Positions 2,149 to 52,354 of a DNA stretch of 64,000 bases are shown piece after piece. The notes under the pieces are model-generated. The model was not told the DNA's origin, made no database searches, and was given only the letters and a program-made list of their open reading frames with translations. The stretch spans positions 53,012,001-53,076,000 of the forward strand of contig OZ076409.1 in the NCBI GenBank assembly GCA_964187785.1, given 5' to 3'. Position 1 is the stretch's first letter; each line of letters starts with the position of its first letter. The position numbers and the translations under genes were made by a program. This DNA comes from Amphiscolops sp. MND2022. Taxonomy: Eukaryota.

Positions 2149-3996
2149 TGTCGCAGGCTGCCGCCTGTGACGGCACGACAGTAACTACTTCGGCAGTTGG
2201 TCAAGAATATGTACCCGGAACCTTACCTATTTATTAAGAACTTACAATTGATATCAAACTTTCACGCCATTTTGTTATTTTGTGCATTATGATCATTGAT
2301 GACGTTCACTTTATATACAATTAGTCTGTTAAATCTAACAATTGGAAATTTCAATCGAGTTGATGGAGTTGTAAAGGCGCTAATTTAAAGCGATAGAAAA
2401 TACAATGAAACGAGCGACTGTAAGGCAGTATAGGAAACGAGTTCAAGTGACGTACGGCAATGTACCGGCAGCGTCACTTGAGCACGTTACCTTAACCAAT
2501 CATATCGCAGTATGCAATCTCGTTTGTTGATGCTATTTAATTAATGGCCGAGTAAGGCCAGTTGCCGCGCTTTTAATATTCTCTTTTGGTACACTGGTCA
2601 AATGGCCGGTTCCGTCCCATTAGTTCAAGACTGAAATAAGGTGATAATTTAACATGAAACAAGTCATGTTTGTTGAGTTTGTGTTTTCATAATAGCCAGA
2701 TCTCTGTTCATAACTGATGCTTCGTCTTAATACTCAACCTTTTGTTAGGCCCTTAAGGCCATATTTCATTAGTACTTGCCTATTAATTAGCCGGCTATTT
2801 CCGGCCATTGAAATTGTTACGTTCCTTTGAAAAGTGATGTAGTACATATATTTGGGGCTAATCGGTTAATCAACGCATACAATTATTAATATGACAATTG
2901 GCCGTATTAGGCCTAATAACATGATGTGCTTCACACTGTTGCAAAGCTAATTTTAGGTCACGTGGTGGCACGTGCCTGAAAGGAATGTGTGCAATGTTAT
3001 TTATATTCATGATGAGTACTAGTTCCTTTGATAGACGGAAATTTCATTTGATGCACTAGTAAATATTTTGATGCCGCCTTTGATGAATGAATAGTTGTGA
3101 TTGTAAAATGTTAGGAATTTTCCCAATCGGGACATCACCCTAAAATAGTTGCTTTGAAGTATTAATACCCGATGCCGTAATAATACTTGTCACATGACCC
3201 GTTGAGGACATAACCACATGATATTATCTTCATCAAAGAATCCGTGGAATGTAAGTGTCATCTTTCAGGAGTATATATAGTTACTTTCCTGCAAAGGGAC
3301 ACACAATTTCCATAACCTTGCTTTGATAAAGATCGATTTATTACAACGACGTTTGTCAGTTTTCCGGTTTTAATAATTGAATTATTCAACCCGGTTCAAT
3401 TTCAATGCCTACCACAAGGAAACAAAAGAAAGCGAGAAAATCAAGAGAGGCAGAAATGTTGTCAGATATTGAGAATTTAGACATAATGCTTGGAGGAAAT
3501 CATTACAATAGAAATGAAAGAAGTGATAGTCTAAATAGTAACCAGGCCAGGAGACCTGGTAGTCCTTTTGGCGACGAATTTGAAAATGAGGATGAAAATA
3601 GGTTATCTAACTCTGAAAACAATGGACCTAGTCCAAATGCCGAATTAGGCCAGAACTCAGTTAGAGGTAGTTCTAATGCTGAGATCAACAGATTGTCGAG
3701 TGAGTTGAATTCCCGTATATCTCGGGAGATGGATGAGATGATGAACAGCGTCAGTGTGCAGATTCAAAGAGCTATAAGTGAGGCAATTAGTAATCAAGTT
3801 CTTCCCCAGATTCAAAATGCCCTTATGGCCGATTCCGGACATATGACCAAAGAGAGATGGAACGTTCCGTCTGAGAGACCGGAAGGATATTCTGAAGTTC
3901 TGCGTAATTCAGACTCTAGAAACAATTCGAAGAGTAAGACACTTGGTGACCGTCAGAAGGACGGATTCACATTATCGGACACCCGTGCTTACGACA
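2149..3996 (+). repeat. 5' LTR (1848 bp)
   Basis: Near-identical to 19481-21328 (offset 17332); one mismatch noticed by eye (3231 C vs 20563 G); TG...CA ends. Confidence 0.97.
3271..3280 (+). promoter_or_regulatory. Probable LTR TATA box
   Basis: GTATATATAG about 130 bp upstream of the gag ATG; the same motif occurs at similar positions in related LTRs (~474, ~42928). Confidence 0.6.
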
Positions 3997-5126
3997 TGGT
4001 GACAGGAGCAAACGAATCTCCAATTGAAGTTCCTGAGTTTCTCACAGGACGAATGCCATCCACTAGTCATCTCAACAGATCCTGTGATGACCTTCCGCTG
4101 CTCGACACGACGATCCCAGCACAAGAACGACCCGCTCTGGCATCAGAACAAGACCCCATCAATAGGCTAGCAGATGTTTTAACTAGTATGCAGAACCGCC
4201 CAACGGCCCAACAACTCACTATCCGCCCAGTCAACTCCAACACAATGACATTCGACGGAAAAAGTGAGAAGTTCGAGCTGTTTGAGGATTTATTCCATAC
4301 GATGATCAAGATGCAGCCTGAGATGACCGAACAAATGAAAATCAATCACTTCCATTCCTTACTGCGAAAGAATGCACTCCAAACATTTAGAAACATCAGC
4401 AACGCCAATAGACAAACTCTTGAGGATGTACTTGTTATTTTCAGACGAAAGTACGTCAAACCTGAATCTCAGGCAACTGCAAAACACAAATGGCATCGCC
4501 TAGTCTTTGACCCTAACACGACCAAATTGCCAGACTTCCTTGAAGAGCTTAACCAAGGAGCAGAAAAAGCCTTTGGAGACAATGCCCAAAAAATGATCGA
4601 CAGTCTCCTATACGCAAAACTGCCACCAAAGCTCAAAAGATCAGTCAACATGGCTAGACTAGAGAATGGCTCTTACGATGAAATCGTCGCTCATCTGGAA
4701 AGAGAACTGGAACTGAATGCACTCGAGGAGTCTGATGACCTACCTATAGCGTCAATGACATCTTCGGTTGGCAAGACAAAAACTGTTCCTTCCAATGTAC
4801 AGATGAGTGACATAACGTGCAATTATTGCAAGGAAAAGGGCCATATGGTCAAGGATTGCGAGAAACTGAAGAAGAAAAAAGAAAAAGATGCCCAACAAGG
4901 CAAACAGACTCAGAAAAAGACGTACCCGGAGTGTGGCACTTGTGGTAAAAAGAACCACCCCGAAGAAAGATGTTGGCAAGGCGCTGGTGCACATCTCAAA
5001 CCCAAACGCACCAGACCAGATGACGCCAATGATGGTAAGCCCCATTCAAAGGCGCAGAAACCACAAAACAAATCAACATCACCAAACTCCCAATCCTCAT
5101 CCTCTAATGATGAGTCAAAAAACTAA
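3405..5126 (+). CDS. gag: Gag (573 aa) with two CCHC zinc knuckles; first ~197 codons lie within the LTR
   Basis: Capsid-like region (FDGKSEKFELFEDLF); knuckles CNYCKEKGHMVKDC and CGTCGKKNHPEERC; upstream of pol. Confidence 0.95.
   Translation: MPTTRKQKKARKSREAEMLSDIENLDIMLGGNHYNRNERSDSLNSNQARRPGSPFGDEFENEDENRLSNSENNGPSPNAELGQNSVRGSSNAEINRLSSELNSRISREMDEMMNSVSVQIQRAISEAISNQVLPQIQNALMADSGHMTKERWNVPSERPEGYSEVLRNSDSRNNSKSKTLGDRQKDGFTLSDTRAYDMVTGANESPIEVPEFLTGRMPSTSHLNRSCDDLPLLDTTIPAQERPALASEQDPINRLADVLTSMQNRPTAQQLTIRPVNSNTMTFDGKSEKFELFEDLFHTMIKMQPEMTEQMKINHFHSLLRKNALQTFRNISNANRQTLEDVLVIFRRKYVKPESQATAKHKWHRLVFDPNTTKLPDFLEELNQGAEKAFGDNAQKMIDSLLYAKLPPKLKRSVNMARLENGSYDEIVAHLERELELNALEESDDLPIASMTSSVGKTKTVPSNVQMSDITCNYCKEKGHMVKDCEKLKKKKEKDAQQGKQTQKKTYPECGTCGKKNHPEERCWQGAGAHLKPKRTRPDDANDGKPHSKAQKPQNKSTSPNSQSSSSNDESKN
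3997..4008 (+). promoter_or_regulatory. Primer-binding site TGGTGACAGGAG (tRNA-Leu-like)
   Basis: Directly abuts the LTR CA end; same 12-mer at 43162 (+) and at 58449 and its duplicate (-); one mismatch to the complement of the metazoan tRNA-Leu 3' end (TGGTGTCAGGAG). Confidence 0.85.
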
Positions 5127-8100
5127 CTTCGCCACGACTCCAATATAACCAATTAGTCTCTGTCCGACAATACATCAAATCGGACCCTCCAACTCAAAGC
5201 TTTCATAACTATCAGCAGCAACTGATGGGCTACCCTTCTGTTGTCTGGCAGCAACAGATGGAAAAAGCTACCATTATTACCTATAATAATACCCATTTGT
5301 TCCAAAAACCAATTCCTGTATGGGACCCTGATTACACATCTGCTTTCAATAGCCGATTCAGGCCCATTCCCTTGGTAGATGACTACAATCCTACCTACAT
5401 AGATCCTGACTATGGACGAGATCCCTATTGGGACAACGAGCTTTATAACCAGGATTTGCTGCAATTCCAATACGTTATTGATGATATAGAACTCTATAAC
5501 AGATCAGTCCATGACAATCCACCAATCACCCATAACAAGAAAACCAGAGCATTGATTGAAACATGGCAGATGAATGATGGTACAAGCCATCCGGTATTCC
5601 CAAACCCCTTGGGGACCGAAACCTCAGACAAACAAGAAGAAACAATACCACACTCACTACTTGATGAAAGTCAGTTCCAGAACATCCTCATCACCAGAGA
5701 AGGAGAACCAGACTGTATTCCTCTGTCCACCAACATAAACTTGAAATGCAAAAAACGCATGCTGTATTTCCCTATGGACTTTGGGGAACTGACCATAGAT
5801 GGACTTATTGACACGGGTGCCTTATCCAGTGCAATCCCTGAAATGGACCTCCGGAAAATCAGGCTCCTATCACCGCAATCAGTCATCCGGGAAGGTCCAC
5901 CTCCGAATTTCCAGATAATGGTCGCAAATGGGCAACTAGAGACTCCAAAGAGTACTATAGAGCTCAAATTTGAAGTTGGTGACATAGAATTCCATGAAAT
6001 TTTCATAGTAATGGAACACTTGACAGGACCAATTATAGGACTGATGTTCCTACAGAGAAACCATACAGTTTTGGACATGAGGCAAGGAATACTGAACTTT
6101 CCATTCTTTTCGATGCAGCTCAAAACAGCTGATCACAAATACTCGAATGTACTTGAACCAATTTTGAACCCTACCGAAATAACCATTCCGCCAAACGACA
6201 GAGTCCTAATTAGGACCAATTCCCTATTGTACCCTGAAAACACGGTCACAGGGATCTTACAACCGAGCGACCTTCTTCATGAAGAAGGAGACATCACATT
6301 CTGCCCAGCCCTGGTTACTTTGAACGATGGCAATATACAGATACCGGTGAATAATTTCACAGATCACCCTTACAAGCTCAAAAAGGGACTCCATATTGCC
6401 AGCTTCTCAGTCATGACGCCAGAGCAGATGAAATACGTCAAACCAATAGACCCAGCTTCAACCTGGCATTTGTTACAAAATGACCAAGAACAGGCAGCCC
6501 ATTACGTCAGTAGTCTCATCAAGACTAACAGGAATCCACAAAATACCGAAAACTATTGGTTCCCAACCCCAGAGAACCCAGGGAACCCAGAAGAACATAC
6601 ACCAATCCAAAAAAGGATACTCCGTGAATTACAAGCCCTACAGGACCTAGAATCACTCGATCCCACAAAGGATGAGGAATCTAAGGCAAAATTCCTAGAA
6701 AACTTTGACTGGAAAGACTCCACATTGACACCTGATGAAAAAGAGAAAATTGAACAATTACTAGTGGAGTTCCATGATATCTTTGCAAGACATAGATTCG
6801 ACATAGGCATGAATGAGGAATTCAAAGTGAAGTTGACACCCAAGGACGATTCCCCAGCCTACAGCCAAAGCCTCCCTGCGCCGATTAACCTGAAGGAAGA
6901 CATTTTAGTCGAATTAGCCATGCTTCACAAATATGGCATCATAACTACCCTACCGTTCTCGAAATACGCCAGTCCAATATTTGCACAAAAGAAACCGAAT
7001 GGGAAACTGAGACTTCTGGTTGACTTGAGAAAAATCAACAACCTAATCTCTGATGATTATATTAACAATAATCATCCAGTCAGTACCCTAGTCGATGCCG
7101 CCCAACACATGGCAGGCAAGAAACTCTTTTGCAAGTTAGACTGTTCACAGGCGTATCATTGCCTTCCCATGGCCGACCAACGTTCAATCGAAATGCTGGC
7201 CTTTAACTTTGCAAGCCGCACATTCGCCTACAGACGACTGGCACAAGGCCTTAGTAGGGCACTGTCCGCATTCTCCAGCTTTATGAGAGAGTACCTAGAC
7301 AAAGTCATAAAAGCGGACCAATGTGCACAGTATGTAGACGACATTGGCATCGCAGCCAATGACGCCGATCACCTTATTGCTAACCTGAGAGCAACTTTCA
7401 AATGCATCCAGGAGGCAGGCCTTAAATTGACAATGCACAAGTGCCATTTTGGTGCCACAGAAATCGATTTCCTTGGCAGGACAATAACCGCACAAGGCGT
7501 CAAGCCCCAACGGCAGAATGTTCAGAATTTCCTAGAAAAGACCAAATTTCCGAAGTCGAAAAAGGCTCTACAAAGATATTTGGGTTTCTTGAACTACTAC
7601 CGGAATTATGTCCCAAGACTGTCTGAACGCCTTGCTCCGTTCTACAGGATGCTCAAGAGTGACGAAAAAGTCCTAGTGTCCAAGGAACTAGTTCAACAAT
7701 TTGAGGAAATCAATCGAGCTCTGGACAAATGCTGCGACTTGGCCCTACAACAACCCATCCCGAACAAACAAATTGCCCTAATGACAGATGCAAGTTTTGG
7801 TGCTGCAGGATATGCAGTACTCATCGAAGATGACCCGAGTCAGAAATTCACGTCAATCCGCAAATCATATGCACCGGTCGCTTATGGTTCAAAAACCTTC
7901 ACCCCAGCCCAGATAAAGATGTCGATTTATGCAAAAGAATTTCTGGCGATCTACTTCGCATTTAAAGAATTTGGATATATCTTCTGGGGAGCGCCGAAAC
8001 CGGTCATAATCCTAACTGACAACAAAGCCGTAACAAGATTTTTCCAAACGAATATCGTACCCCCAGCCCTGTGGAATGCGTGTGACTATGTAATTCAGTT

Positions 8101-10331
8101 CAATTTTGTCATCGCGCACATCCCAGGAGCACAAAATACGGCAGCAGATTATTTATCTCGATTGGAAGCCGAACCGAAGGACAAATTAGTCATGAAAATC
8201 CGCGAAGACGTACAAACTCTGCCAATAGAAATAAACGTCCAATCAGCCGGAGTCTCACAGGAAGAGCAAATCTTCTACACAAACGACGATGATGAGACTG
8301 AAGAACAATATTGGGCGAGAAAAGAAGCAATCAGGAAAAATCCTGTAAATGAAGAACCTACTGTTACAATACAAACTCTCTATACCAACTTAGTCAAACA
8401 ACAACCTGAAATACAAGTCCGACTGAGGAAAACCAACCTGATAATTATTGAGCAATCCAAAGATACAGTATTGCAACAACTGAAGGCGAAGCTCCTTCAT
8501 GAAGAGTACTCAGAAAACATACTGCAACAGGATGCTCGATACAGACATTATGCTAATAATCTGGAAAGAATTGTCATCAAGGAAGACATCCTAACAAGGC
8601 AATATTTTGACGAAACCGGGAATATAAAATATCATCAAATTCTTCTCCCGCAACACTTGCTGCCAGAATTGCTTCAGTCCCTACACGGGACAGCCCACAA
8701 GCACCCAGGCATCTCAAAGATGCTGCAGGAGATCAGACAGAGATATTATTACCCTAACATGGCGAAACATGTCAAAAAGTGGGTAGAAGGGTGTGAACAA
8801 TGTGCGAAGGACAAACGAGTCCCAAACGCAACAATCACGCCTGAACTACTCAATTTGCCCGAATGGGACCTTGGACCTGAAGACGCCATGCAAATCGACT
8901 TATTGCCGAATCTTCCCCCAAGTGGAGGATACGAAAATGTTTTAACTGCAATTGATGTCTTCTCTCGATACTTGTTTGCTTATCCTCTTACAGACGCATC
9001 AGCGATCAATGTAGCTAAAGCAATCATTGATATTATGACGAAACATTCTTACCTACCGACGACGCTCATTACGGATAAAGGAACTGCCTTTACTTCCACG
9101 ATCATTGCGGAAATTACACAGATTTTAGGCATTACCCTAAAATGTGCAACGACGAAACACCCGCAAACCATCGGGAAATTAGAGCGAACGCATGCCTCAC
9201 TAAAAACGAACCTGAAAATGGCATGTGGGGAATATCGCCAACAATGGCATAAATATTTTGCCTTTAGCAGTTCTCAACCATAACACAAGTTATCATGCCA
9301 GTATCGGATGCGAACCCACAAGAGTGTTCCATGGGAGAATCCCATACAACATCTTGGACCACAAACTTGGAATGAATCCAAATGAGCAAATCCATCCGAC
9401 TACTGAATTCGCAGAAGAAATCCAGAACCGGACCAAACTCCTTATTGACAAAACTAAACAGAACATCATGCAGTCATATATCAAATATAAGGAGTATTAC
9501 GACCGAAAAGCAAAAGCCGCCCCACTCAAAGAGGGCGATTACTGTTTTGTATTACAGCCGAAAGCGGATCATCAAGGATCAAAAATTCCATTCAGGGATT
9601 ATCGTTGGGTTGGACCATTCATAGTCCAAAAGACCTTACCTAATGAGAATTACATTGTCCGAAGGCTTAATACAAATAAAACGCAGATATTGCATCGAAT
9701 TCGTCTCAAAAAGTTTGTGCCAAATCAACCACTTGAGGACAATTTCCGAGAACAGCGTCTACAGCCGGATGACGAAATAATCATTCCGCAAGACGACTTG
9801 TATGTAATAACGTGGGAAACAAACTTTGGCGAACAACTAGACACACGAGGCAGCGAGCCTATTCCGACCAGCTTGACGAATGACGAACAGCAGACTACGG
9901 CAGAACCGAATGCAAGTGACGCAAGCGAGAATGAAGTTGATTATGTAATCACGAGTGACGAATCAAATTTCACTGACCGCGCGTCGCATAGCCGGAATGA
10001 ACGATTAATTGATGACGTCACTAAAAGAAATAAAGCTACTGAAGCTATTAGAAACGACGAATTTGATTGGCCAAATCCGGCCGTTTCCCCAAAAACCCAA
10101 GAAAAATCTGTGCCGAAAACGGCTGAAGGACTAAAAGACGATGCAAATTTTCCAGAAAGAAATTTGATGAATGAAAAAGATGCAGAAAATTCTCCAAATA
10201 GGGGGGATGATATTATCGTGCCCGAAATATCACAAAATGAAGAAGGAAATGAAAATCTGAGTCCTAGAGCTGGGAAATATAATCTCAGGCCTAATCCTAC
10301 CCCTAACTACTCAGAAGACTTTAGATACTAA
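5114..10331 (+). CDS. pol: Pol polyprotein (protease, dUTPase-like insert, RT, RNase H, integrase with GPY/F-type motif); one frameshift near 9256-9259
   Basis: LIDTGA protease, YVDD RT, TDAS RNase H, HHCC and D-D-E integrase in ORF 5225-9283 (frame open from 5114); integrase tail (WVGPF) continues in ORF 9225-10331. Confidence 0.95.
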
Positions 10332-10604
10332 AGGAAAGATTAAATTGTGCCCGAAAACGGACGCCGAACTATCTTTTCTCTTCCTTTTATCATTATTTCT
10401 TTTCTTTTCAGTCCCAGAAACTGGTATTTTTTGAATAAATATCGGGACGTTTGACAATGATCCCTTCAAGGGAATAATATGGGATCAAGAAATTGGCAAC
10501 AAATGGAATACAAATAAATGCAACAACAAGAAATAAAAATATAACAGAAACGGAAAGAAATCAACAAAGTTTACAACTGGTTGTACATAATTACATATGT
10601 ACAT

Positions 10605-13600
10605 TTAGTTTTTAGAAGAACTGGGGACACACTCATCCACGACAGAAGAGGCCCTAGATCGGGAAGCGCTCCGACTCATCCTCCTGCGCTTGCTAGCGCT
10701 GGGGGCTTTCAGAGCACATTCATCGGCGACACTATCGTCGCCCCTGGTTCCTGCCTCAGTGGAAACTGCCTTAGGCACAGAGAGAATGGACTTGTAGGTG
10801 GACAGCAGCGATTTGTAAATTTTGGAGCGGCCAAAATCGTCAACGTACGTCCAAGGGTCGTAATCGGCTGAGAAGGCAGATCGTCCAAAGGAGGAAGCGA
10901 ATAAAGAAAACTTGGACAGATTAGCTTCATTACAACAGAAAGCGGCTGACCCAGGAACTGAGCTTATATAACTCTGGACAGGCAGAATAACATCGGTAAA
11001 TCTGCCTCGGTGACCCGCCGTACTCACACTCCCGGCAGTTACTACTGGATAAGTAGGGGTAACAGAGGTTGCACACAGACAGCAAAGCTTAAACAAATAA
11101 AGAAGCCGCTCCCGTGACTGAAGGAAGTCCAAGGTCATCATGAAATCAATCAAGTCTCGAGAGACACTGGTGACGTCAAAGGTAGGGGGGTAATTCCCTC
11201 GAAGATGATCGAGAAGAGCCAAATAATCATCCCGACAAGCTGACTCATCGGCCTCGAGGACCCAAGAGCGGAGGAGGAAAGTGCTGTATAACAACTCAAA
11301 GTGCTTAAGAGCAATGTCGATTGGCCTCTTGAGCATGACAGTTGGATCAAAAGCAGCCAGACCTTTGATGATGTTGGAGCTAAGACCGGGTTCATGGAGG
11401 ACCTCTCCCAATAAGTACTTCAGGTAGTTTTGCCCGTCTTGGACAAACTTCGACTTGATTGCCTCCGCTGTCTTCTGGATTACGGAACGCTCAGTCTTTT
11501 GACCAGAATGGACCCCTTCTGACCTCTGCTTACTGGCTGTTGCGACCTTGTTGGTGATCTTGAGACGAGCCAGAAACTCCGCCTCGGGGATGAAAACTCC
11601 GTCTGAAGTACGGAAATTGAGGAGCTGGAACCATGCATTTTCCAATGGGACCGTATCAGCGGTGTAGATCCGGAAACAGAGTTGATGTATATAACGAGAG
11701 ACCTCACCACACAGGAAGAAGGACCCATCTCGTCGCTGTTGCAGGTTGACCGCAAAACTGGAAGTATCTACAACAAAGGCGGACCTTATATATGAGTTAA
11801 GGACACGTCCTAGAGGAGGTTAAGCAGTGATACTAACAGTCACTGACGAGCTTGCAAAAGAATTCCAACTTGATGGTGAAGAACTCATCACAGATGAGGG
11901 TCCACTCAAAGCTCTGTGCCTGTAATGGGAAAATATCAGTTAGCCTGAATTATGAGGACATTTTGAAAGGTACCGAAATTTAACGTTGGGACCTAAGGGG
12001 AAGGAAAACCAATCTCTTAGTGGACTTACTCTCGTTCGAACCCCCTGTCCTTGTTGTCGGGGTGAGTGCTCCGTTAGGTAGCGCACAACTGATTTCCAGG
12101 CGATGATGAGTTCCTGACATAGGACAGGAAGAGTGGGGAGATCCAATTTGCATGAAGCTATAGCCTAAATAACGTATTGTATTAGTGTCCGTAAGGGAAA
12201 TAAGCAGGGTCTCTTATCTGTCCAAGGTACAACATTCCTACCATAATCGGAAAGTCATTACCTGAGATAAGGTGGGGCTCTGCAGTACCCAATCCTCAGA
12301 GAGAGATCCACCCAGGGTGATGACTAAGGCATGTAGGACCGAAAAGAAGTCGATATGCCCGAAGACACTATAACTGGGTTTGTGCATCAGTCTGGAGAGG
12401 GACAAGGTCTCAAACCGGAAGGACGCCTGCACTGCTCTTGAGAAGAGTGGGGAATGGTCGATTGTCCTGACAAAGTCAACGGGGCAGCCAGAACAAGCCA
12501 CCACATCGCAATTGGTGGAGACTGCGGATAGGAGCCGTGAGAGAGACCCTAGTTCTCCTGACAATTCCGAAGAGGGTAGCTCGCTGCGACAGACGAGGAC
12601 GCGACACAATTCAGTCCCCTTCCAGAACCGTAGAGACATGAAGCGATTGACATTGCTGTCTTCAAATTCTATGGCAAAGCACTGTTCTGCAGCCACGCAC
12701 TCCGCTATTTCGCTCATAGCACAATTGAACAGGTGCTGGAAGATTGTCTGGAAAACAGACGAATGTTTCAAAAATGCAGAATGGATTGAGTCAACCTACA
12801 AGTAGGGAAAATAAAAACTTACCGTCATACGTTCTTCCCCCCAGTCGAAGTCACAGAGAGTAGCTTGGTAGTCTGTGAAGGAACTAAGGCGTGCCCATAG
12901 ATTGCGTAGCATCGCAAAATCGCCTTGGTCCTTGAGGAAGTCAATGACGATGCCCAATTGGGTCCTGGACCTGGACTCTGGGGTGACTATGGCAGTGGTC
13001 CGTCCCTGGATAAAATCGTCATAAAAGGGGAATCGTTCCCCGATGTCCACTAGCTCTGAATGGATGAAACGTGGGAGTTCTCTGGCTAACTCCCGGACTG
13101 ACTAAACTGTCTTTTGGTGAATTGTCAGTCAATCTGTAGCATTGAAAAGAGGCAAAATTTGAACAAGTTATGTACTGTCAACACTGTTTCTTTAGTCTTC
13201 TTAACGGAAACATGGCTTTCAAATGACGTAGTGAATTCTGAGGTTTTTCTGGGCAATTCTTTCACTGTTATCTCTCGCTCTGACCGTTCTTTTGGCTCTC
13301 ATGGTGGTGTTTTGATTGGTGCCTCAAATGATGTCAACCTGAATATTATGGATGTTTCTATTGTCGACTACGAATTCTCTGTAGCCTGTGTTGTTGTTGA
13401 CGTGAAACTCATATGCTTCGTTCTTATTTATTTCCCACCTTCTACATCTGAATACCGCATAGACTGCAAGGTTTTGACATCATGTCTACATTCTTATAAT
13501 ACGAAATTTGCCACAATGAGTTATCAATGTGGTTTTGGTGAAGATTATATCTTATTCATTCTTGGCGATTTCAATTTTCCTGAAATCGATTGGATTAATC

Positions 13601-16600
13601 TAACATCATCAAATACTAATGAGCAAAAGTTTATTGAAACCTCTGACCTGTTAGCAGTTTCGCAGTTAATCGATACCCCGACTCATAAGTTGGGAAATAT
13701 TCTTGACCTGATTCTAACAAATGACGACACTAGCTTTTTCAATGTTCACCAACAGTTGTTTTCTGATCATTTTCCAATATTATTCTATACGTCTTGCTGC
13801 CTGCCTAAACCAGTTTGTACTGAATCGTTCTCCAAATCTTCTTTTGACCAATTCCTTTTCAACAGTAATCTTGAAACCTTATTCAATTTCATAACACTTG
13901 ATAACTTGTCTAATCCCTGTTATCCTTACGAATGGTATGAACTTTTAACCCAATCTATTGGAAGCTCTCTGCAGCTCAAGCGTTCCAAAAGACTTCATTT
14001 TCCAGCTTTCTACTCATCACATACAATCCATATTCTCAATCTTGTTAGAACTAACCAAACAAAATTGAACAAAGGTTGGTCGCTCCACAATTCAATCAAG
14101 CATATTGAGTTGACACGTGCCCTCTCTGAATCTATTGAACTTGACAAACACATTTACATTGAGCAATTCAGCTTAAAGTCGCCAACAGACTGTTTCAAAC
14201 TTCTGCGTTCACTAGGTTTTAGTCAATCATATCCTTCTGTTATGTACTTTGAAGATCAAGTTTTACATACTGAAAGTGAGAAAGCAACCTGTTTTAATAA
14301 CTACTTCGGATCAGTATTTGGTCCCAAAACCATCAACCCACCTACTCTTTTCATGTCTTCAGATCACAAAATTTGTCTTGATGATGTTTCTATTCGGGCG
14401 GAAACTGTTACTTTCATGCTTAGTCAATGCAATGATTCGTCATCCCTTGGTCCAGATCTTATTCCCTCCTTCATTTTATATCGATGTTCTCAGATCCTCA
14501 CTCCCATAGTTACTGAACTCTTCAACTGGGTTTTACACAATAGAACTTGGCCTGCTATGTGGAAGTTGTCTTTTGTTACTCCTCTTCACAAAGATGGTCC
14601 ACGAACGCAGATAGAAAACTATCGACCAATAAGTATTTTGCCTAAATTGTCTCTTATTTTGGAACGTATACTTTTCAATTTTATTTATCCAAAAGTCCGA
14701 AATTCGATTACTAAAAACCAGCACGGCTTCATGACAAAACGAAGTACTGTAACGCAGATGATATTATATCTTGATAAAGTCTACCGTAATATTGATTCCA
14801 ACGTACCGTCATTAGCTGCATATTTCGACGTCAGAAAAGCTTTCGACTCAGTGCCTCATCACTTACTTCTGCAAAAACTTGTGAAATTCGGGTTCTGTCC
14901 AGATTTTATTCGCTTGTTCTCTTCTTACCTGGATGAACGCTCCCAGTGTGTAAAACTTAATAATACCTTCTCCAGTAAAATAACCGTTTCTTCTGGTGTA
15001 CCGCAAGGCAGTGTACTGGGTCCATTACTGTTTATCCTGTTTGTAAACGATATGCCGAACTTAATAGTTTATGGTACTCCTTTCTTGTTTGCTGATGATA
15101 TGAAGGTGTTGTTCGATGTTGATCCCCGCCAAATTCAAAGTGATATTGACAACTTGTATCTTTGGAGTATTGCCAACGGTCTGATTTTTCACCCTTCAAA
15201 GTGCAAAATTTTACCTTTTGGTTCCTCGTCTTTCGATGAGTCATTCATTCTTGGCGACAATGATCTTCCGGTGGTTGACAATTAAAAAAATTTGGGCTTC
15301 CTGATTACTCACAATCTAAGCTGGAACAGCCACATTGACCATAAATTAGCCACTGCTCGAAAAATATTTGGGTTTCTTCGAAGAAATGTTCCATTCAATT
15401 GTTCTTTTGTCAGAAAGAAACTGCTTTATCAAAGTCTTATTTTATCTGTTCTTCTTTACGGTTCCCCTGTGTGGTCTCCCTCCTCCACGTATATTGCAAG
15501 ACTAGAAAAATTCCAATATAAAGTTTTGAAATGGATGTTTTCATCAGAGGACTATGTTTCAGGTCTGCTCCAGCTACAGTTTCTTCCAATCTGCTACCAA
15601 CTCATCAAAGCTGACGTGATTCTACTGTGGAAAATTTACAATAGTGATGTTGATTGTGAATACTGTCCATCTAATGTTGCCTCTTGTACGCGTGCATCTT
15701 CGGCCAATCAATTTATTATCCCTGATACAAAAAAACTTGGCTCAAACGCTAACTTCTTCGTACGAGCCACACGTTCTGTAAACTTTCTCTTAAGTCAAAA
15801 TGTTATATCTTTAACCATGTCTCTATCATCTTTAAAATTATCTCTTGACTGTTATTTCAGTATGCTAACAAAGAATTTTAACATCGATAATTCTTGTTGC
15901 TTCTACCTCAAATGTATGTGCACTTGTTGTAGGTCCTAATTCACCTGATTTATGTTTTGTTCGCTATAATTATTTCTTTCTTTGTTAAATAATTTCCGTA
16001 ATTGGAATTGAGTCTTTTACTACTACTACTACTACTACTAACTCAATCTTGTTCAGAAGCCTTCCGTTTCGTCCTCTTACACGATGCTGGACTTGCTTGG
16101 TGACGGGATCAACACTCTTTAGATGCTCATATCGCCACCTCTGGTCTTTTCTTAGATGCCTCTCTGAACGGTGGTGCCTTAGGATTTCCATGGTGCCTTT
16201 GCTGCGGATGGAAAAGTTTCTTTTGCAAATGTGACACCAAACCATCAGAGGATTGTGGATGGGGTCCGCGGGTCCAGAAATGAAGGACCTTGTCCAACCA
16301 ATTTTTGCAAAGAATTCTTCACGCATGGGGACTCCTCTGTGGGTGGTGCGCTTGATGCGTTTCTGCCTCTGCGTCTTGGTAGTTGTTCTGGATTTGCGTT
16401 CCAGAACCTCATCGCGGACTTCCAGCAACGTGGCATCTTGGCTGCTGAAGCCTGATTGGCCAGGCTCTTCTTGTTGGGACTGACTTCCGGACTGCTGCGT
16501 GGGATTTGGTCCTAGATCCGTAGTGAGATTCTTCTTGAATGTCTCAGTGATCAGAGCCATCTCTCCGGAACTATCACTGTCTTCGAACCCAGCGGATGTA

Positions 16601-17733
16601 TCAGTGCCTTCCGCTCCAGACGAGGAACCAGCTAAGGGACAGGCCCCAGTGAGGTTATCAGTTTCATCGTCACTTGATTCACTGCATCCAAAGGGAGTGG
16701 GGACTCGAACTCTAGTCTGGAAGTGACTGGTCCTTGACGGGGCCACGGTCGGGGTGCCCTTTACTGCGTCCAACACCATTCGCTCCATCGTGGTATAAGA
16801 CATTCGGATAGTCTCGTCAGTAAGGGACCTTAAGAGGTGGTACATCTGTGGCTCAGTAAAAGCCACAGTTGGATGTCCGAGGGGTAGAGAGAATGGCTGT
16901 GCATCGTCAAAGTAGGTTTTGAGGATGGCGCGAGTCCTACCTGATAATTCAGGAAGCCTGTCATCTTGCTGTCTCCGGGGCACGCCGTCTTGGTTACTGA
17001 GCACCGAATGTGAGGGATTGATGCCAGTCTCACTCTCTGCTTCAGCTCCCGACTCAATCTCCAGTGGGTTGGTTCCGTACAAAGGAGGGCATCCTGCTAA
17101 GCTGCTTTCATCTGCAGTTTGCTCACTCCCACTGAAATCCGTAAGATAGAGGACTTTGGGCTTCACAACGGGTAGAGCAGGGACTTCGTACACTGAGGAT
17201 TCATTATCATCTCCAGATTGCCCCCTGGTTAAAGTTTCATCATTGGGAGGTGACGCTACAACGGCCACAAGTTCTGGGAGCTGGGAATTGGACGAGGTGG
17301 CTACTCTGAGTGCAGACTCCAATGCAGACAAGTTACACTGGGTCAACACTTCCTCATCAGGGAGCGTTGGGGTACTTGTCCTGACTAGTTCCTGAACTAA
17401 TGTTTCAGTCCTCTCCTGAGTTCGGTCATCCGCACCAGTAGAAGCGACAGTGGCAGTATCATCTGGGGAGCGAGCAATTGCCGTCTGAGCTTTCTCCATC
17501 ATGTCTACCATCTCATCGGCGAAAGTAGTCACATCTACCTCGCTATCCGTGCTCCCTTTGGTCTCTTGGGATTGCGTCAGAACAGAGGTATGAGGAGCTG
17601 ACACTACAGTTTCAACAGGGTTGTCTAGACTTGGGTTGGCTGGGACTTGGGTCTCATCACTTGTCTGGTTTTCTAAACAGAAGGAGATGAAATTTGGCGG
17701 TATGCTTCCTTGATAGAAATCCATTTGCCGCAT
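10605..17733 (-). CDS. Antisense five-exon accessory gene (~1274 aa): low-complexity N-terminus, BED-like zinc finger, degenerate hAT-transposase-like body; interrupted by a LINE in this copy
   Basis: Exons 17733-16045 + 13092-12823 (joined after LINE removal), 12747-12262, 12164-12030, 11919-11838, 11767-10605; four GT-AG introns of 75, 97, 110 and 70 bp; the joined 3825 nt form one open frame; motif WCHICKRNFSIRSKGTMEILRHHRSERH. Confidence 0.85.
13093..16044 (+). mobile_element. 5'-truncated non-LTR retrotransposon (CR1/L2-group-like LINE) nested in the LTR element
   Basis: 7-bp TSD CTAACTC (13086-13092, 16038-16044); (TAC)n 3' tail; APE endonuclease plus RT ORF. Confidence 0.93.
13102..15939 (+). 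pseudogene. LINE ORF2 (APE endonuclease + reverse transcriptase) with one in-frame stop at 15283-15285
   Basis: LTETWL, GDFNFP, SDH endonuclease motifs; NYRPISIL, GVPQGSVLGP, FADD RT motifs; ORFs 13114-15285 and 15292-15939 share a frame; terminal CMCTCC. Confidence 0.92.
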
Positions 17734-18786
17734 TAGAAAACTTCCGGAAGTGTTCGAAATTCTGAACGGACGTGATCAACACGTGTTCACCAAGTAGTGG
17801 AAACAGGAAGCAATTAGTGAACAAACTTAGCTCTGATCAAGTTAAACTAGTTCAAAAATATGAAAACCCAGACCAACCTGCTTTTGAAGACATTCTGTTG
17901 TGGAAGAATTCGTTCTAAGGGATTCTATCCAAATTCGGATGAAGAGTATGGGGAAGACGGCCTAACACGGCTGATGAAAGAGGGGCTCGGAGGGCTCCGT
18001 AAAGGGAAGAAGAAGCCAGCAACGAAGTTGAAGACCCAGATAAGGAAAGCGGAATAGCAAAGACTGAAGGATACAAATGTAAACAATTTAAATGGTAATG
18101 GAACTAAATGCGTGTTAACAATTGAAAGGAGATAAAAGTTGGAGGTCGTGGCTGAAGAAATTACCAGACTAATATTATTTAATTATCTACATATTTATTC
18201 GGTACATGGAGTCTGCCAGCGAAATGTACAAAGAACTTTGCTATTTACAGCTTAACTAGTTAGAGGCCGGTTATGGCCAGTTGACCTATCTTGTTTTGTC
18301 GTTTTGTCTAGTTACCCTAATTACCTTAGCTGAATCTTCGCCATTTTAGTTATTCAAATTATTATTTTTCGCCATCTTTATTATTCATTTTTCAAATTTA
18401 TCGAAGCTCAAATTTGATTGGCTGAAGCCATTTTAGTAGGCTTTACCTGACGCGTGCCGTTAATTGCTATCAAGCTTGATGTTAATTACCCTCTTGAAGT
18501 GGAGTTATTTGTTGTTGTTAACTTAACACCTCTCTGATTACCTACTTGAGAGGGTGGGCTCGGGGGGCAGCGTTCCGATATTCAAAGGGCGAACCGCCGC
18601 TGAGAAACCCCATTCAGAAAAGTTTACGACGGATCAGACCGATTAACCAAAGAATCTGCCGCTGAAACGAAACCCCGGGAAAACGGCCCGAGTCGGCCCG
18701 AGGAGAGTTTTATAAATTCATTCAACTTTGAATCTCACTTGCAGCTAGTTGCCTTCATAAACTTCAAAATAGCTAAAAAATTCATC

Positions 18787-19569
18787 ATGGATAAATACGC
18801 AAAATCTGGAAAACTCTTCGAGATGGCTGAACTGGACTCAGACTCATCAGGCGATTCAGTTATTTACATAAGCAGCGATGAGGAAACCTCAGTTGATTTG
18901 GACTCAGACTGGTCGACGGACACGGACGAAATGATCAGAAGGGTGGAGAGGCAGGTAGTGTCCAGCCCCATTCTAATTGCCGGACGTGTCATGACGACTA
19001 GCAGTATGGAGGAAGAAATGGTCACAGGACCAAGCACCAGACAGCCGGGGCAAGATGTGACTCCCAAGTTAGATACAAAATACTTTGATCACGAGAGGTG
19101 CTATGCCCCGTCAAAGAGAGCGGAGAAATCACGAATTGAGCTCTGCAAGACGCTGCTACCAGTGCTAGAATCACCGATGTCTCCACCAATCCATGAGAGG
19201 GGGCCAAGCCAGGACACTCCTCTGGTCCAGCCCGCAGTAAGTGATTTTCATGTGTCTTATCACGTGCAGAACTCGGTGCCCTACCAAAATGTCAGCGAGA
19301 CCCAATATACTGGGTGTATGGTTTGCGGCCGCTCTGTAGATGCAATCAAGAGTGAGAGAGTCAGATGGTATATGGAACGATCCACCCCAAGGAACGAGGC
19401 CGAGCACATCACGAAGTTGAGGAAAGAAGCCTACGAGAATGGGCTTAATGCGGGATGCTTCCTTTTCATAACACCCGCAGTGTCGCAGGCTGCCGCCTGT
19501 GACGGCACGACAGTAACTACTTCGGCAGTTGGTCAAGAATATGTACCCGGAACCTTACCTATTTATTAA
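18787..19569 (+). CDS. Accessory ORF3 of the LTR element (260 aa from first ATG), function unknown; last 89 nt inside the 3' LTR
   Basis: Long uninterrupted ORF with an acidic Ser/Asp-rich N-terminus and a CMVC motif; no signal peptide or transmembrane segment evident. Confidence 0.7.
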   Translation: MDKYAKSGKLFEMAELDSDSSGDSVIYISSDEETSVDLDSDWSTDTDEMIRRVERQVVSSPILIAGRVMTTSSMEEEMVTGPSTRQPGQDVTPKLDTKYFDHERCYAPSKRAEKSRIELCKTLLPVLESPMSPPIHERGPSQDTPLVQPAVSDFHVSYHVQNSVPYQNVSETQYTGCMVCGRSVDAIKSERVRWYMERSTPRNEAEHITKLRKEAYENGLNAGCFLFITPAVSQAAACDGTTVTTSAVGQEYVPGTLPIY

Positions 19570-21328
19570 GAACTTACAATTGATATCAAACTTTCACGCC
19601 ATTTTGTTATTTTGTGCATTATGATCATTGATGACGTTCACTTTATATACAATTAGTCTGTTAAATCTAACAATTGGAAATTTCAATCGAGTTGATGGAG
19701 TTGTAAAGGCGCTAATTTAAAGCGATAGAAAATACAATGAAACGAGCGACTGTAAGGCAGTATAGGAAACGAGTTCAAGTGACGTACGGCAATGTACCGG
19801 CAGCGTCACTTGAGCACGTTACCTTAACCAATCATATCGCAGTATGCAATCTCGTTTGTTGATGCTATTTAATTAATGGCCGAGTAAGGCCAGTTGCCGC
19901 GCTTTTAATATTCTCTTTTGGTACACTGGTCAAATGGCCGGTTCCGTCCCATTAGTTCAAGACTGAAATAAGGTGATAATTTAACATGAAACAAGTCATG
20001 TTTGTTGAGTTTGTGTTTTCATAATAGCCAGATCTCTGTTCATAACTGATGCTTCGTCTTAATACTCAACCTTTTGTTAGGCCCTTAAGGCCATATTTCA
20101 TTAGTACTTGCCTATTAATTAGCCGGCTATTTCCGGCCATTGAAATTGTTACGTTCCTTTGAAAAGTGATGTAGTACATATATTTGGGGCTAATCGGTTA
20201 ATCAACGCATACAATTATTAATATGACAATTGGCCGTATTAGGCCTAATAACATGATGTGCTTCACACTGTTGCAAAGCTAATTTTAGGTCACGTGGTGG
20301 CACGTGCCTGAAAGGAATGTGTGCAATGTTATTTATATTCATGATGAGTACTAGTTCCTTTGATAGACGGAAATTTCATTTGATGCACTAGTAAATATTT
20401 TGATGCCGCCTTTGATGAATGAATAGTTGTGATTGTAAAATGTTAGGAATTTTCCCAATCGGGACATCACCCTAAAATAGTTGCTTTGAAGTATTAATAC
20501 CCGATGCCGTAATAATACTTGTCACATGACCCGTTGAGGACATAACCACATGATATTATCTTGATCAAAGAATCCGTGGAATGTAAGTGTCATCTTTCAG
20601 GAGTATATATAGTTACTTTCCTGCAAAGGGACACACAATTTCCATAACCTTGCTTTGATAAAGATCGATTTATTACAACGACGTTTGTCAGTTTTCCGGT
20701 TTTAATAATTGAATTATTCAACCCGGTTCAATTTCAATGCCTACCACAAGGAAACAAAAGAAAGCGAGAAAATCAAGAGAGGCAGAAATGTTGTCAGATA
20801 TTGAGAATTTAGACATAATGCTTGGAGGAAATCATTACAATAGAAATGAAAGAAGTGATAGTCTAAATAGTAACCAGGCCAGGAGACCTGGTAGTCCTTT
20901 TGGCGACGAATTTGAAAATGAGGATGAAAATAGGTTATCTAACTCTGAAAACAATGGACCTAGTCCAAATGCCGAATTAGGCCAGAACTCAGTTAGAGGT
21001 AGTTCTAATGCTGAGATCAACAGATTGTCGAGTGAGTTGAATTCCCGTATATCTCGGGAGATGGATGAGATGATGAACAGCGTCAGTGTGCAGATTCAAA
21101 GAGCTATAAGTGAGGCAATTAGTAATCAAGTTCTTCCCCAGATTCAAAATGCCCTTATGGCCGATTCCGGACATATGACCAAAGAGAGATGGAACGTTCC
21201 GTCTGAGAGACCGGAAGGATATTCTGAAGTTCTGCGTAATTCAGACTCTAGAAACAATTCGAAGAGTAAGACACTTGGTGACCGTCAGAAGGACGGATTC
21301 ACATTATCGGACACCCGTGCTTACGACA
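19481..21328 (+). repeat. 3' LTR (1848 bp), with a second copy of the gag 5' segment (ORF 20737-21402 runs into the flank)
   Basis: Direct repeat of 2149-3996, followed by TSD AAAGG. Confidence 0.97.
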
Positions 21329-22033
21329 AAAGGCAACTTTCGACAGCACAAAAGTCACCGAAAGTAAAAACATCCGGCGAGCTATTAATTGTTCTTTGTT
21401 GAAACAGATACAAGAAAAAATTCACGCAACGTTCATCTCGGGCCGACTGTTCCTGAATGAAAAGAAAACCCAAAAAGATACGGAGCCAGCGGTGGGTGTT
21501 GACATGAAACCGAAGAACCGACATTACCTTCGCGTGCTAGAGGGGGAGTAAGTCCGACGGTATGAAAGCCTTAAAATTATACCCTAAATGGAAAATTGAA
21601 AATCGTCCGAAACAAACGAATGCAAAATTCCGAGGCTGAAGAAAAAGATGATGAATAGAATGAAGAAGAGAATCTAGAAGGAGCCGGATAACACCATCTA
21701 TGGTGAACAATTGTTCTTTTCAACATTTTTTCGTAAAATTTCTATTTTCGAACTAATATGACAAGAACTCCGAGCATGTATACATGCATTCTATGCGCAG
21801 TCCGATTCTCTTCTCAAACGTTTTCTTCAGTATACAATATAGATGTACTAGTTTCATAATTTTTATGAATTGCAGAGGCTTCTTTTCAGAGTAGCATAAA
21901 ATCTACACTAATAGAGTAACTGAAAACTGAGAAAGACTCTCCAAAGCGTGAATATTTTTCCACAGTAACCCAAGGGTTCCTCTCTACCCAAAGAAATTAT
22001 TTCAATACTCGCGCTTTTAGTTTTTAAACTAAC

Positions 22034-51097: not shown

Positions 51098-51811
51098 CTA
51101 ATCACTTGTTGCATTCAGAATTGTCAGAATGTAGAGAAAGATGTTGATGATATCTAAATATAGATTAAGTGCAGCGAAGATGTACTCCTCGGGGCTGATA
51201 GAATATTGATGATTTCCACCGATCATCATCTGCGTATCCACGACTAGATACGCTGAAAATAGAAGCGCTCCAAGAGACCCATACACAGCCATCATGATTT
51301 GCGAGGGGAAGATCATAGCGATTATCCCAAAAATGAATAGACAGATGAGAACGACAAAGAGTATTCCACTGTAAACCGTGAAATCTATCTTGGTTTGAAA
51401 CGCGAATATTGTGAGAGAGATCGTGATTACAGCCGTAATTGCGATAGCAATAAAAACGATTTTTGTATCATACTGGCCCGATATTACACCAAGTAGAAAA
51501 CTTTCGCAGATTGTGAAAGTGATCAGAAGAATGAAGTTAATTGGCGAGGACCTCCGCAGATTCTCAAAGCATACTAGTGTAAATAATAACACGAATGTAA
51601 GTACCATAGCCAGAATGAACAACCATGGATTTTTCTCCGTGTAGTCTTTGACTGGATCTACAAAAACGAAAAGCGAAATGAAGCCGAGGGTGATGAGCAT
51701 TTGGACAGACAATATTGCGTACACTTTCCTGATGAAGCCATGTCGAACTGAGGTTTCATCGAAGCTGAAGGTGGCATCATTTTCCACAAGGTTGTCGCTT
51801 TCATAATACAT
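51098..51811 (-). CDS. Bax inhibitor-1 / TMBIM family, protein Lifeguard-like (237 aa, multi-pass membrane)
   Basis: RHGFIRKVYAILSVQ, FAFQTKIDFT, DTQMMIGG, SPEEYIFAALNLYLDIINIF motifs; about seven hydrophobic helices; no intron in the ORF. Confidence 0.95.
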   Translation of the reverse strand: MYYESDNLVENDATFSFDETSVRHGFIRKVYAILSVQMLITLGFISLFVFVDPVKDYTEKNPWLFILAMVLTFVLLFTLVCFENLRRSSPINFILLITFTICESFLLGVISGQYDTKIVFIAIAITAVITISLTIFAFQTKIDFTVYSGILFVVLICLFIFGIIAMIFPSQIMMAVYGSLGALLFSAYLVVDTQMMIGGNHQYSISPEEYIFAALNLYLDIINIFLYILTILNATSD

Positions 51812-52354
51812 TTTCAGAGCGCTGGAGTAGCACTGACACTTTAAACAACACTTTATACTATCTAGAAAAAATATATAGTTAAAAGTACCAACTAGACAAA
51901 TGAGCTCAGGCTTCAGGTGAGTGTTTTTTCAGTGGCGCAGAAAAGCATTGAATACTAACCACCAAGAGCAGTGATCACAGAGACGAAATTATAAGTTCAT
52001 AATCCAAAAAAATGAAGTGGATCTTGTATGTTAATGCCCCCTCTCCCCAAAAAATCCGTATTTTCAGTGTAAAAACTGATAGGTAGTTATTGTTTCGGTA
52101 ATCATTTGGGACCGAACTATTTTACGAAGTGACCAGTTTCTCAGAAGTGACGAAAAATTTCTGAGGCTCAGGTTATTCATGCAGCGCAAGTATGACTTCT
52201 TTTTCGAATCAGTGATCGCTTTGTCTGACTCAAGAACCTGACTCATGCTTTCTGACATGACTACAATTTTCTGATAAGAAATATTGCGGAACACTTCAAC
52301 ATCATCTCAAATCGAGGTCAATATTTTGGTAGAGAGTATGAGGGTGGTGATGAG

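Follow-up and report, generated by a model that had tools for sequence, protein, structure and literature searches.

How does a retrotransposon come to carry, back to front between pol and its 3′ long terminal repeat (LTR), an intron-bearing accessory gene, and what might such a gene do? The question is raised by a 64,000-nucleotide stretch of the Amphiscolops sp. MND2022 genome (assembly GCA_964187785.1, contig OZ076409.1, positions 53,012,001 to 53,076,000 of the forward strand; hereafter, the window, to which all coordinates refer), where a Ty3/gypsy element at 2149-21328 contains an antisense gene of five exons with its first ATG at 17733 on the minus strand. The original prediction saw here a catalytically dead hAT transposase co-opted by a retroelement. 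Our analysis bears out the loss of the catalytic motifs and the co-option, makes hAT descent probable, and traces the gene further, into DNA transposons of the CACTA/EnSpm superfamily.

The antisense gene and its inheritance

In an uninterrupted sibling, the gene comprises 653+162+45+414 = 1,274 codons, precisely the length originally given for the spliced protein. In the window, exon 1 is in two pieces: the 5′ part (16038-17733; all exons are on the minus strand) encodes an acidic region followed by a BED-like finger (16239-16156), the 3′ part lies at 12823-13092, and between them sits, on the plus strand, a long interspersed nuclear element (LINE; 13093-16037) with endonuclease and reverse transcriptase (RT) at 13102-15939, a (TAC)n tail and a 7-bp target-site duplication (TSD). 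The split limits the window copy to a truncated product ending at 15985; the 2.9-kb LINE is absent from all five close siblings of the element, which are 16.2 kb each. Exon 2 (12262-12747; 486 nt) encodes the first strands of an RNase-H-like core in which the first and second catalytic Asp residues and the CxxH motif are replaced, exon 3 (12030-12164; 135 nt) contains a degenerate RW position, exon 4 (11838-11919) measures 82 nt, and exon 5 (10605-11767) encodes a helical insertion and the C-terminal region with the AAFDP, LFKLCCL and KRRR motifs. All the peptides quoted in the original prediction are encoded on the minus strand within the spliced gene (WCHIC...HHRSERH at 16239-16156, CFAIEFED...LRFW at 12681-12622, VVACSGCP at 12504-12481, AAFDP at 11357-11343 and LIDF...LFKLCCL at 11153-11076); the interval then assigned to the gene, 10605-16330, takes in these motifs but falls short of its start. 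The N-terminal ~450 residues are acidic (14-16% Asp plus Glu) and rich in Ser, Thr and Pro, with a single conserved island, whereas the C-terminus ends in a basic tail, present in the window clade, in which KRRR (10691-10680) is likely to be a nuclear signal.

The exon-intron structure is stable. Among 16 aligned copies, whose proteins are about 60% identical, 63 of 64 introns follow the GT-AG rule and occupy the same positions, with exons 2 to 4 usually of 486, 135 and 82 nt, and the same five-exon layout was recognized by eye in 7 distant copies. The persistence of introns in a retrotransposon can be explained by the antisense orientation: the genomic RNA would read this gene backwards, leaving its introns unspliced, so that they survive.

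Substitution ratios indicate that selection acts on the gene as strongly as on gag and pol. In a comparison with a sibling over 1,266 codons, the ratio of nonsynonymous to synonymous differences per site (pN/pS) is 0.15 (p = 2.6e-13), against 0.14 for both pol and gag. When L011 was compared with the four other siblings, only L017 was divergent enough to be informative (pN/pS 0.20, p = 4e-8), the remaining three comparisons not being significant; for close pairs, the corresponding rate ratio (dN/dS) is about 0.05. Across six subfamilies, synonymous sites are saturated, and the structured part of the protein is still 64-79% identical. The protein diverges far more across clades than the polymerase (RT 90-98% identical, exon 5 down to 27%), the finger being its slowest-evolving part. 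In subfamily pairs, synonymous divergence of the antisense gene exceeds that of RT.

The family is large. Searches returned 7,118-7,806 candidates each, first-look figures that are not copy numbers; given these figures and a genome size of 1.07 Gb, the gene may have contributed to the size of the genome. From the 7,118 candidates of the exon-5 search, the 140 top scorers, a sample biased to intact copies, were scored: 32 show 97-100% and 108 show 58-64% identity, and 131 contain no stop within the match. A relative at 25% identity has a large family of its own (109 scored). In 36 of 40 loci picked to span the subfamilies, the gene is antisense downstream of pol; the other four comprise a deleted LTR element and three loci in a second type of carrier, discussed below. 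Thus, as in antisense accessory open reading frames (ORFs) described elsewhere, the gene is located between pol and the 3′ LTR, is present in most copies and is conserved, and its position and orientation are the same across gypsy clades. Two more distant gypsy elements, found by chance, carry a homologue at the same place: in the first, RT is 83% identical and the homologue matches with E values of 3e-11, 5e-9 and 4e-24; in the second, the respective values are 69% and 1.4e-5. The pol and exon-5 trees share three deep clades and conflict inside them, indicating that the gene is co-inherited with pol at the deep splits. Together with the selection described above, this co-inheritance upholds the proposal that the gene was co-opted by the element rather than nested within it.

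Beyond this assembly, distant homologues at ~30% identity were noticed (P0140 and P0202; also P0139, P0151, P0158 and P0180). Searches of the Amphiscolops assembly with P0140 and P0202 gave no close match; given that five distant homologues lie on short contigs and that these two have no close match here, other organisms probably have members of the family. A metagenome scan yielded 217 pattern matches and no relative, and a search for longer homologues found none, which is weak evidence.

Resemblance to hAT transposases and loss of the active site

Descent of the antisense protein from a hAT transposase appears probable on four lines of evidence: neighbours in a protein atlas, a fold match to Hermes, a zf-BED match and the order of motifs, read by eye. 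The atlas neighbours of the two halves of the protein point to hAT families independently. Hermes (8edg), which had been named in advance, was the top fold match of exon 5, in the expected register. The domains follow one another as in hAT transposases, that is, finger, helical linker, three-strand core, insertion helices and C-terminal helices. The finger, C-x2-C-x16-H-x5-H, is invariant in all 26 rows of its alignment and, in the most distant member, matches zf-BED with an E value of 0.021, below the curated cut-off.

The profile-profile tests failed, which is the reason why we consider hAT descent probable rather than certain, and several further results weigh on the same side. HHalign against Ac-type and ZMYM-type hATs, a template set that excluded the ZBED5/FAM200 type, gave scores not above reversed controls. 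A hidden Markov model of the family matched none of 30, then 20 more, hAT loci of the same genome, where an ordinary hAT has named relatives in Hydra, insects, fish, a lizard and a tunicate. The Pfam hAT families matched none of 125 exon-5 rows and none of 22 rows of the N-terminal half, and Foldseek returned no E value below 0.001, with Hermes missing from the list on a second look. Pfam found nothing in the window ORFs of the antisense gene, and sequence searches of the PDB gave no real match; PF14291 matched nowhere, controls included, and is hence uninformative. An accessory gene of other origin, with a C2H2 finger and generic alpha/beta and helical domains that converged on this architecture, would account for these failures, but we consider it quite improbable because it leaves unexplained why both halves point separately to hAT families, why a match named beforehand ranked first in register, and why all the domains come in hAT order.

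With the catalytic, CxxH and RW columns mapped by eye onto a hAT of the same genome, the active site is seen to be gone. In 34 rows, the column of the first catalytic Asp holds Glu (23), Ala (10) or Val (1), and that of the second holds Ser (25) or Thr (9); a Glu two residues ahead of the first Asp is invariant in these rows and is Ala in a deeper clade. No third catalytic acid is conserved in 125 rows, or in 32 rows that include distant members, and LFKLCCL occupies the place of the third catalytic motif. The CxxH and RW columns contain, instead, F/P...E/S and K/Q/R/D-L/I/F, respectively; the ERxFS motif is missing, and PF05699 matches none of the 125 exon-5 rows. By these columns, the protein is not an active hAT transposase, and its description as catalytically dead is valid for all copies examined. 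The reported lack of terminal inverted repeats (TIRs) and an 8-bp TSD is likewise confirmed: none of 109 pairs of 11-bp inverted sequences around the gene is flanked by an 8-bp TSD (7 of 8 positions or better), and none begins like a hAT end. A hAT transposon, active or decaying, that merely nested here as a passive passenger is therefore hardly credible, even if nesting is common in this region (the LINE in the antisense gene; the element itself inside an older gypsy), given that the ends and TSD are lacking, position and orientation are constant across clades, and the catalytic motifs are gone, yet protein conservation persists although synonymous sites are saturated.

Compared with Hermes, with which it shares the motif order, the antisense protein lacks the catalytic motifs, has an extra 450-residue acidic N-terminus and has no ends to act on. 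The domesticated hAT genes, the ZBED family, ZBED5/FAM200 and GTF2IRD2, which are among the atlas neighbours, similarly combine a BED finger with a transposase body, and act as regulators. These, however, are single-copy host genes, whereas the antisense gene appears in hundreds of copies and was domesticated by a mobile element, a probable case of one transposon domesticating the enzyme of another.

Cassette exchange and capture by CACTA transposons

Sliding comparisons of identity indicate that the gene has been swapped as a cassette and, for some pairs of elements, that the swap was independent of the LTR. In subfamily pairs such as L141/L025, L109/L119 and L069/L077, the elements are mosaics whose sharp breakpoints coincide with the two ends of the antisense gene.

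The three exceptional loci sit in a 35.3-kb element, two copies of which are 99.5% identical. A TIR of ~37 bp, a 2-bp TSD in each of the four copies for which both ends are present, and a transposase of the Tnp2 type (DUF1258, E = 3.9e-9; Transposase_21, E = 0.0018; DUF4218, E = 0.0034) place this second carrier in the CACTA/EnSpm superfamily. A cross-reading of two sets of results located the antisense gene 19-36 kb from 12 of 14 transposase loci (at least 91% identical over at least 250 residues). Next to the CACTA-borne gene lies a remnant of a gypsy pol end (61 codons, frameshifted, 52% identity), and CACTA patches upstream of the gene match the LTR element L129; the remnant and these patches imply that the transfer went from retrotransposon to CACTA. 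There are two CACTA versions of the gene, each nested among LTR-borne copies, so that two captures fit best, although a single capture is not rejected by the approximately unbiased test (p-AU 0.084). Homologues in TIR-flanked elements had been named in advance as evidence against co-option by the retroelement; such homologues do exist, but their carrier has a transposase of its own along with a gypsy pol-tail remnant, and the proposal is not refuted.

The cargo came with a repeat. An 88-bp unit, homologous to the pol-tail repeat of the donor clade, is present in six CACTA stretches in 20-75 copies forming 4-7 arrays; a short CACTA derivative has 7 copies and L129 has 2, whereas the other 36 LTR loci and the window have none. 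Four sister CACTAs, of which 30-40 kb were fetched, lack both the gene and the 88-bp unit, yet three of the four have arrays of their own. Arrays of the 88-bp unit are thus confined to the cargo-bearing CACTAs, with none in LTR elements.

Selection on the CACTA-borne gene is weak. Its introns are enlarged (L125, L127) with the exon frames open, intron 1 being about 1,010 nt, and the exon 2-5 span is 820-886 in CACTA copies compared to 421-520 nt in 10 LTR copies. SET-domain-like ORFs occur beside the CACTA transposase (L145-L146 and L125-L126; E = 0.015 and 0.075) and also in all four sister CACTAs; they could be a chromatin-modifying accessory.

Possible function

We favour, tentatively, the view that the antisense protein works in the nucleus, where it would bind DNA and act as an activator or anti-silencing factor for those elements that contain its binding sites. 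Under this scenario, a hAT transposon would have landed antisense in the 3′ part of a gypsy ancestor and would have shed both its ends and its active site. Transcription of the gene would start in the region (17734-18786) that separates it from the neighbouring sense ORF, ORF4; this noncoding region lies between divergent genes and is likely to contain the antisense promoter, it displays local conservation peaks, and patches of it are retained in the CACTA copy. A bacterial promoter scan gave chance-level results here, the bacterial model being irrelevant to this genome. Having entered the nucleus by means of its C-terminal basic motif, the protein would use its finger and dead transposase body to bind short motifs that recur in element DNA, its long acidic N-terminal region serving to recruit activating machinery or to hold silencing off. 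The 88-bp unit, amplified by CACTA from the donor pol tail, may contain such a motif. The BED domains of hATs bind short repeated motifs cooperatively (PMC10368747), and transposases can activate their own elements, with loss of catalysis yielding regulators (bioRxiv 10.64898/2026.08.24.746577).

It is improbable that the protein targets an LTR motif specific to a subfamily: enrichment analysis of 7-mers in 19 elements detected no common motif. Binding of the protein to its own LTR, which the original prediction had singled out for assay, is open to doubt, given that cassette and LTR are swapped independently. Strict co-adaptation of the protein with its own LTR was also considered and is weakened by the same swaps.

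In an unlikely but conceivable alternative, the protein binds RNA of the element or a silencing protein of the host (the PIWI pathway, chromatin repressors) instead of a DNA motif, and its divergent alleles reflect an arms race. The structure matches behind this idea, however, come from a model with a predicted local distance difference test score of 35, and the fingers matched share the BED fold; moreover, the finger evolves slowest, and the dN/dS of close pairs is not that of positive selection.

Rather less probable is a cofactor by which the gypsy pre-integration complex would be anchored at selected chromatin or brought into the nucleus. The basic C-terminal motif, the predicted DNA-binding finger and the deep co-inheritance with pol agree with such a role, which has been proposed for plant antisense ORFs (PMC7264820). 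Against it, the gene recombines relative to pol inside clades, gypsy TSDs show no common target sequence by eye, and the gene is retained in CACTA, which has no integrase. Usefulness to retrotransposon and DNA transposon alike would make dependence on integrase or particles unlikely, provided that CACTA benefits; of the functions suggested originally, it is integration targeting that loses ground.

Marginally weaker still is self-limitation, whereby the protein or an antisense transcript damps the element and spares the host. A dead DNA-binding transposase could block as well as activate, and, with ~270 bases between the end of the gene and the pol stop, read-through double-stranded RNA is conceivable (discussed in PMC7264820). 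But recent bursts are evident in every carrier clade (LTR pairs 95.9-99.9% identical in 34 loci), it is the protein itself that is under selection, not RNA alone, and the acidic N-terminus would better suit activation.

If the protein is indeed an activator or anti-silencing factor, a broader picture can be entertained, albeit as a speculative one: a retrotransposon lineage would have turned an entire DNA transposase into a transcription or anti-silencing factor of its own, exchanging divergent alleles as cassettes, and a DNA transposon of a third superfamily would have acquired the cassette, probably on two occasions, and amplified its binding site, the 88-bp unit, into arrays, giving an animal VANC-like system that passes from one class of transposon to another. 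VANC of VANDAL elements and TnpA of Spm are likewise accessory proteins encoded by transposable elements, with fast divergence and tandem arrays in the carrier, TnpA being transposase-derived, and VANC targets build up as tandem arrays (PMC5735166; bioRxiv 10.64898/2026.08.24.746577). Those proteins, however, serve DNA transposons of their own superfamily, with binding and demethylation demonstrated, whereas in the present case a retrotransposon was the first to use a gene that probably came from a hAT, and its function is predicted; no sequence kinship with VANC or TnpA was seen, although none was tested for. At best by inference, the antisense gene would work like an accessory of this type, as a member of neither family. 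The plant mobile domain offers another parallel, one accessory domain in Gypsy and Mutator-like elements with anti-silencing use suggested; the Mutator-like copies come from host genes (PMC5418596), whereas here the pol remnant implies that the DNA transposon took the gene directly from a retrotransposon.

Some LTR elements of plants and fungi are known to carry antisense ORFs on their 3′ side, whose origin and role are left open in PMC7264820 and PMC11963269. Those of Grande (gene23), RIRE2, Retand (TRP28) and Boty resemble the gene described here in lying antisense between pol and the 3′ LTR, being kept in most copies and having a proposed nuclear or DNA-binding role (same sources). According to the review, their origin is unknown and they have no similarity to other transposable elements (PMC7264820), whereas the present gene, with 1,274 codons interrupted by four conserved introns, spans an entire transposase-like architecture and belongs to a genome that appears to be that of an animal. 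In the literature covered, which did not extend to subscription journals, repeat databases and supplements, no LTR element was described as carrying an antisense gene that has introns and derives from a hAT, and no transfer of such a gene to CACTA was reported. Here, the path of such an ORF can be traced, probably from hAT to gypsy and on to CACTA. The well-studied sequence-specific anti-silencing proteins stem from plant DNA transposons; with the 88-bp unit as a candidate target and natural allele swaps at hand, the question of how retrotransposons of animals remain active in very many copies becomes directly testable.

The carrier element and the remainder of the window

The carrier is a Ty3/gypsy element with TG...CA LTRs, a 5-bp TSD, a primer-binding site and gag followed by protease, RT, RNase H and integrase. 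The 5′ LTR (2149-3996, plus strand) and the 3′ LTR (19481-21328, plus) are bordered by AAAGG at 2144-2148 and 21329-21333 and differ by 1 mismatch in 1,849 aligned bases. The gag ORF (3381-5126, plus), with a zinc knuckle, begins within the 5′ LTR (3381-3996) and reads across the primer-binding site. The pol gene (5114-10331, plus) is frameshifted near 9.2-9.3 kb in the window copy and forms a single frame of 1,738 residues in four of the five siblings; in L131, the pol end is covered by a 2.1-kb tandem duplication. ORF4 (18787-19569, plus), the second accessory ORF, encodes a conserved CxxCG...SQAAACDG motif and enters the 3′ LTR; it is 29-72% identical across clades, with a pN/pS of 0.17, and matches no Pfam family. 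The junction of ORF4 and the 3′ LTR contains no ordinary polypurine tract in the window clade. An Env identity was considered for both accessory products and rejected, there being no strongly hydrophobic 19-residue stretch in the antisense exons (maximum 1.61) or ORF4 (maximum 1.75).

The family profile found no antisense homologue at 21.3-48 kb of the window. The element is nested in an older, decayed gypsy (577-1211 and about 21.9-28.8 kb). Farther downstream are an intronless ORF of the Bax inhibitor-1 family at 51098-51928 on the minus strand, probably a host gene, and, at 52.9-64 kb, 4.3-kb units in tandem with LINE RT fragments.

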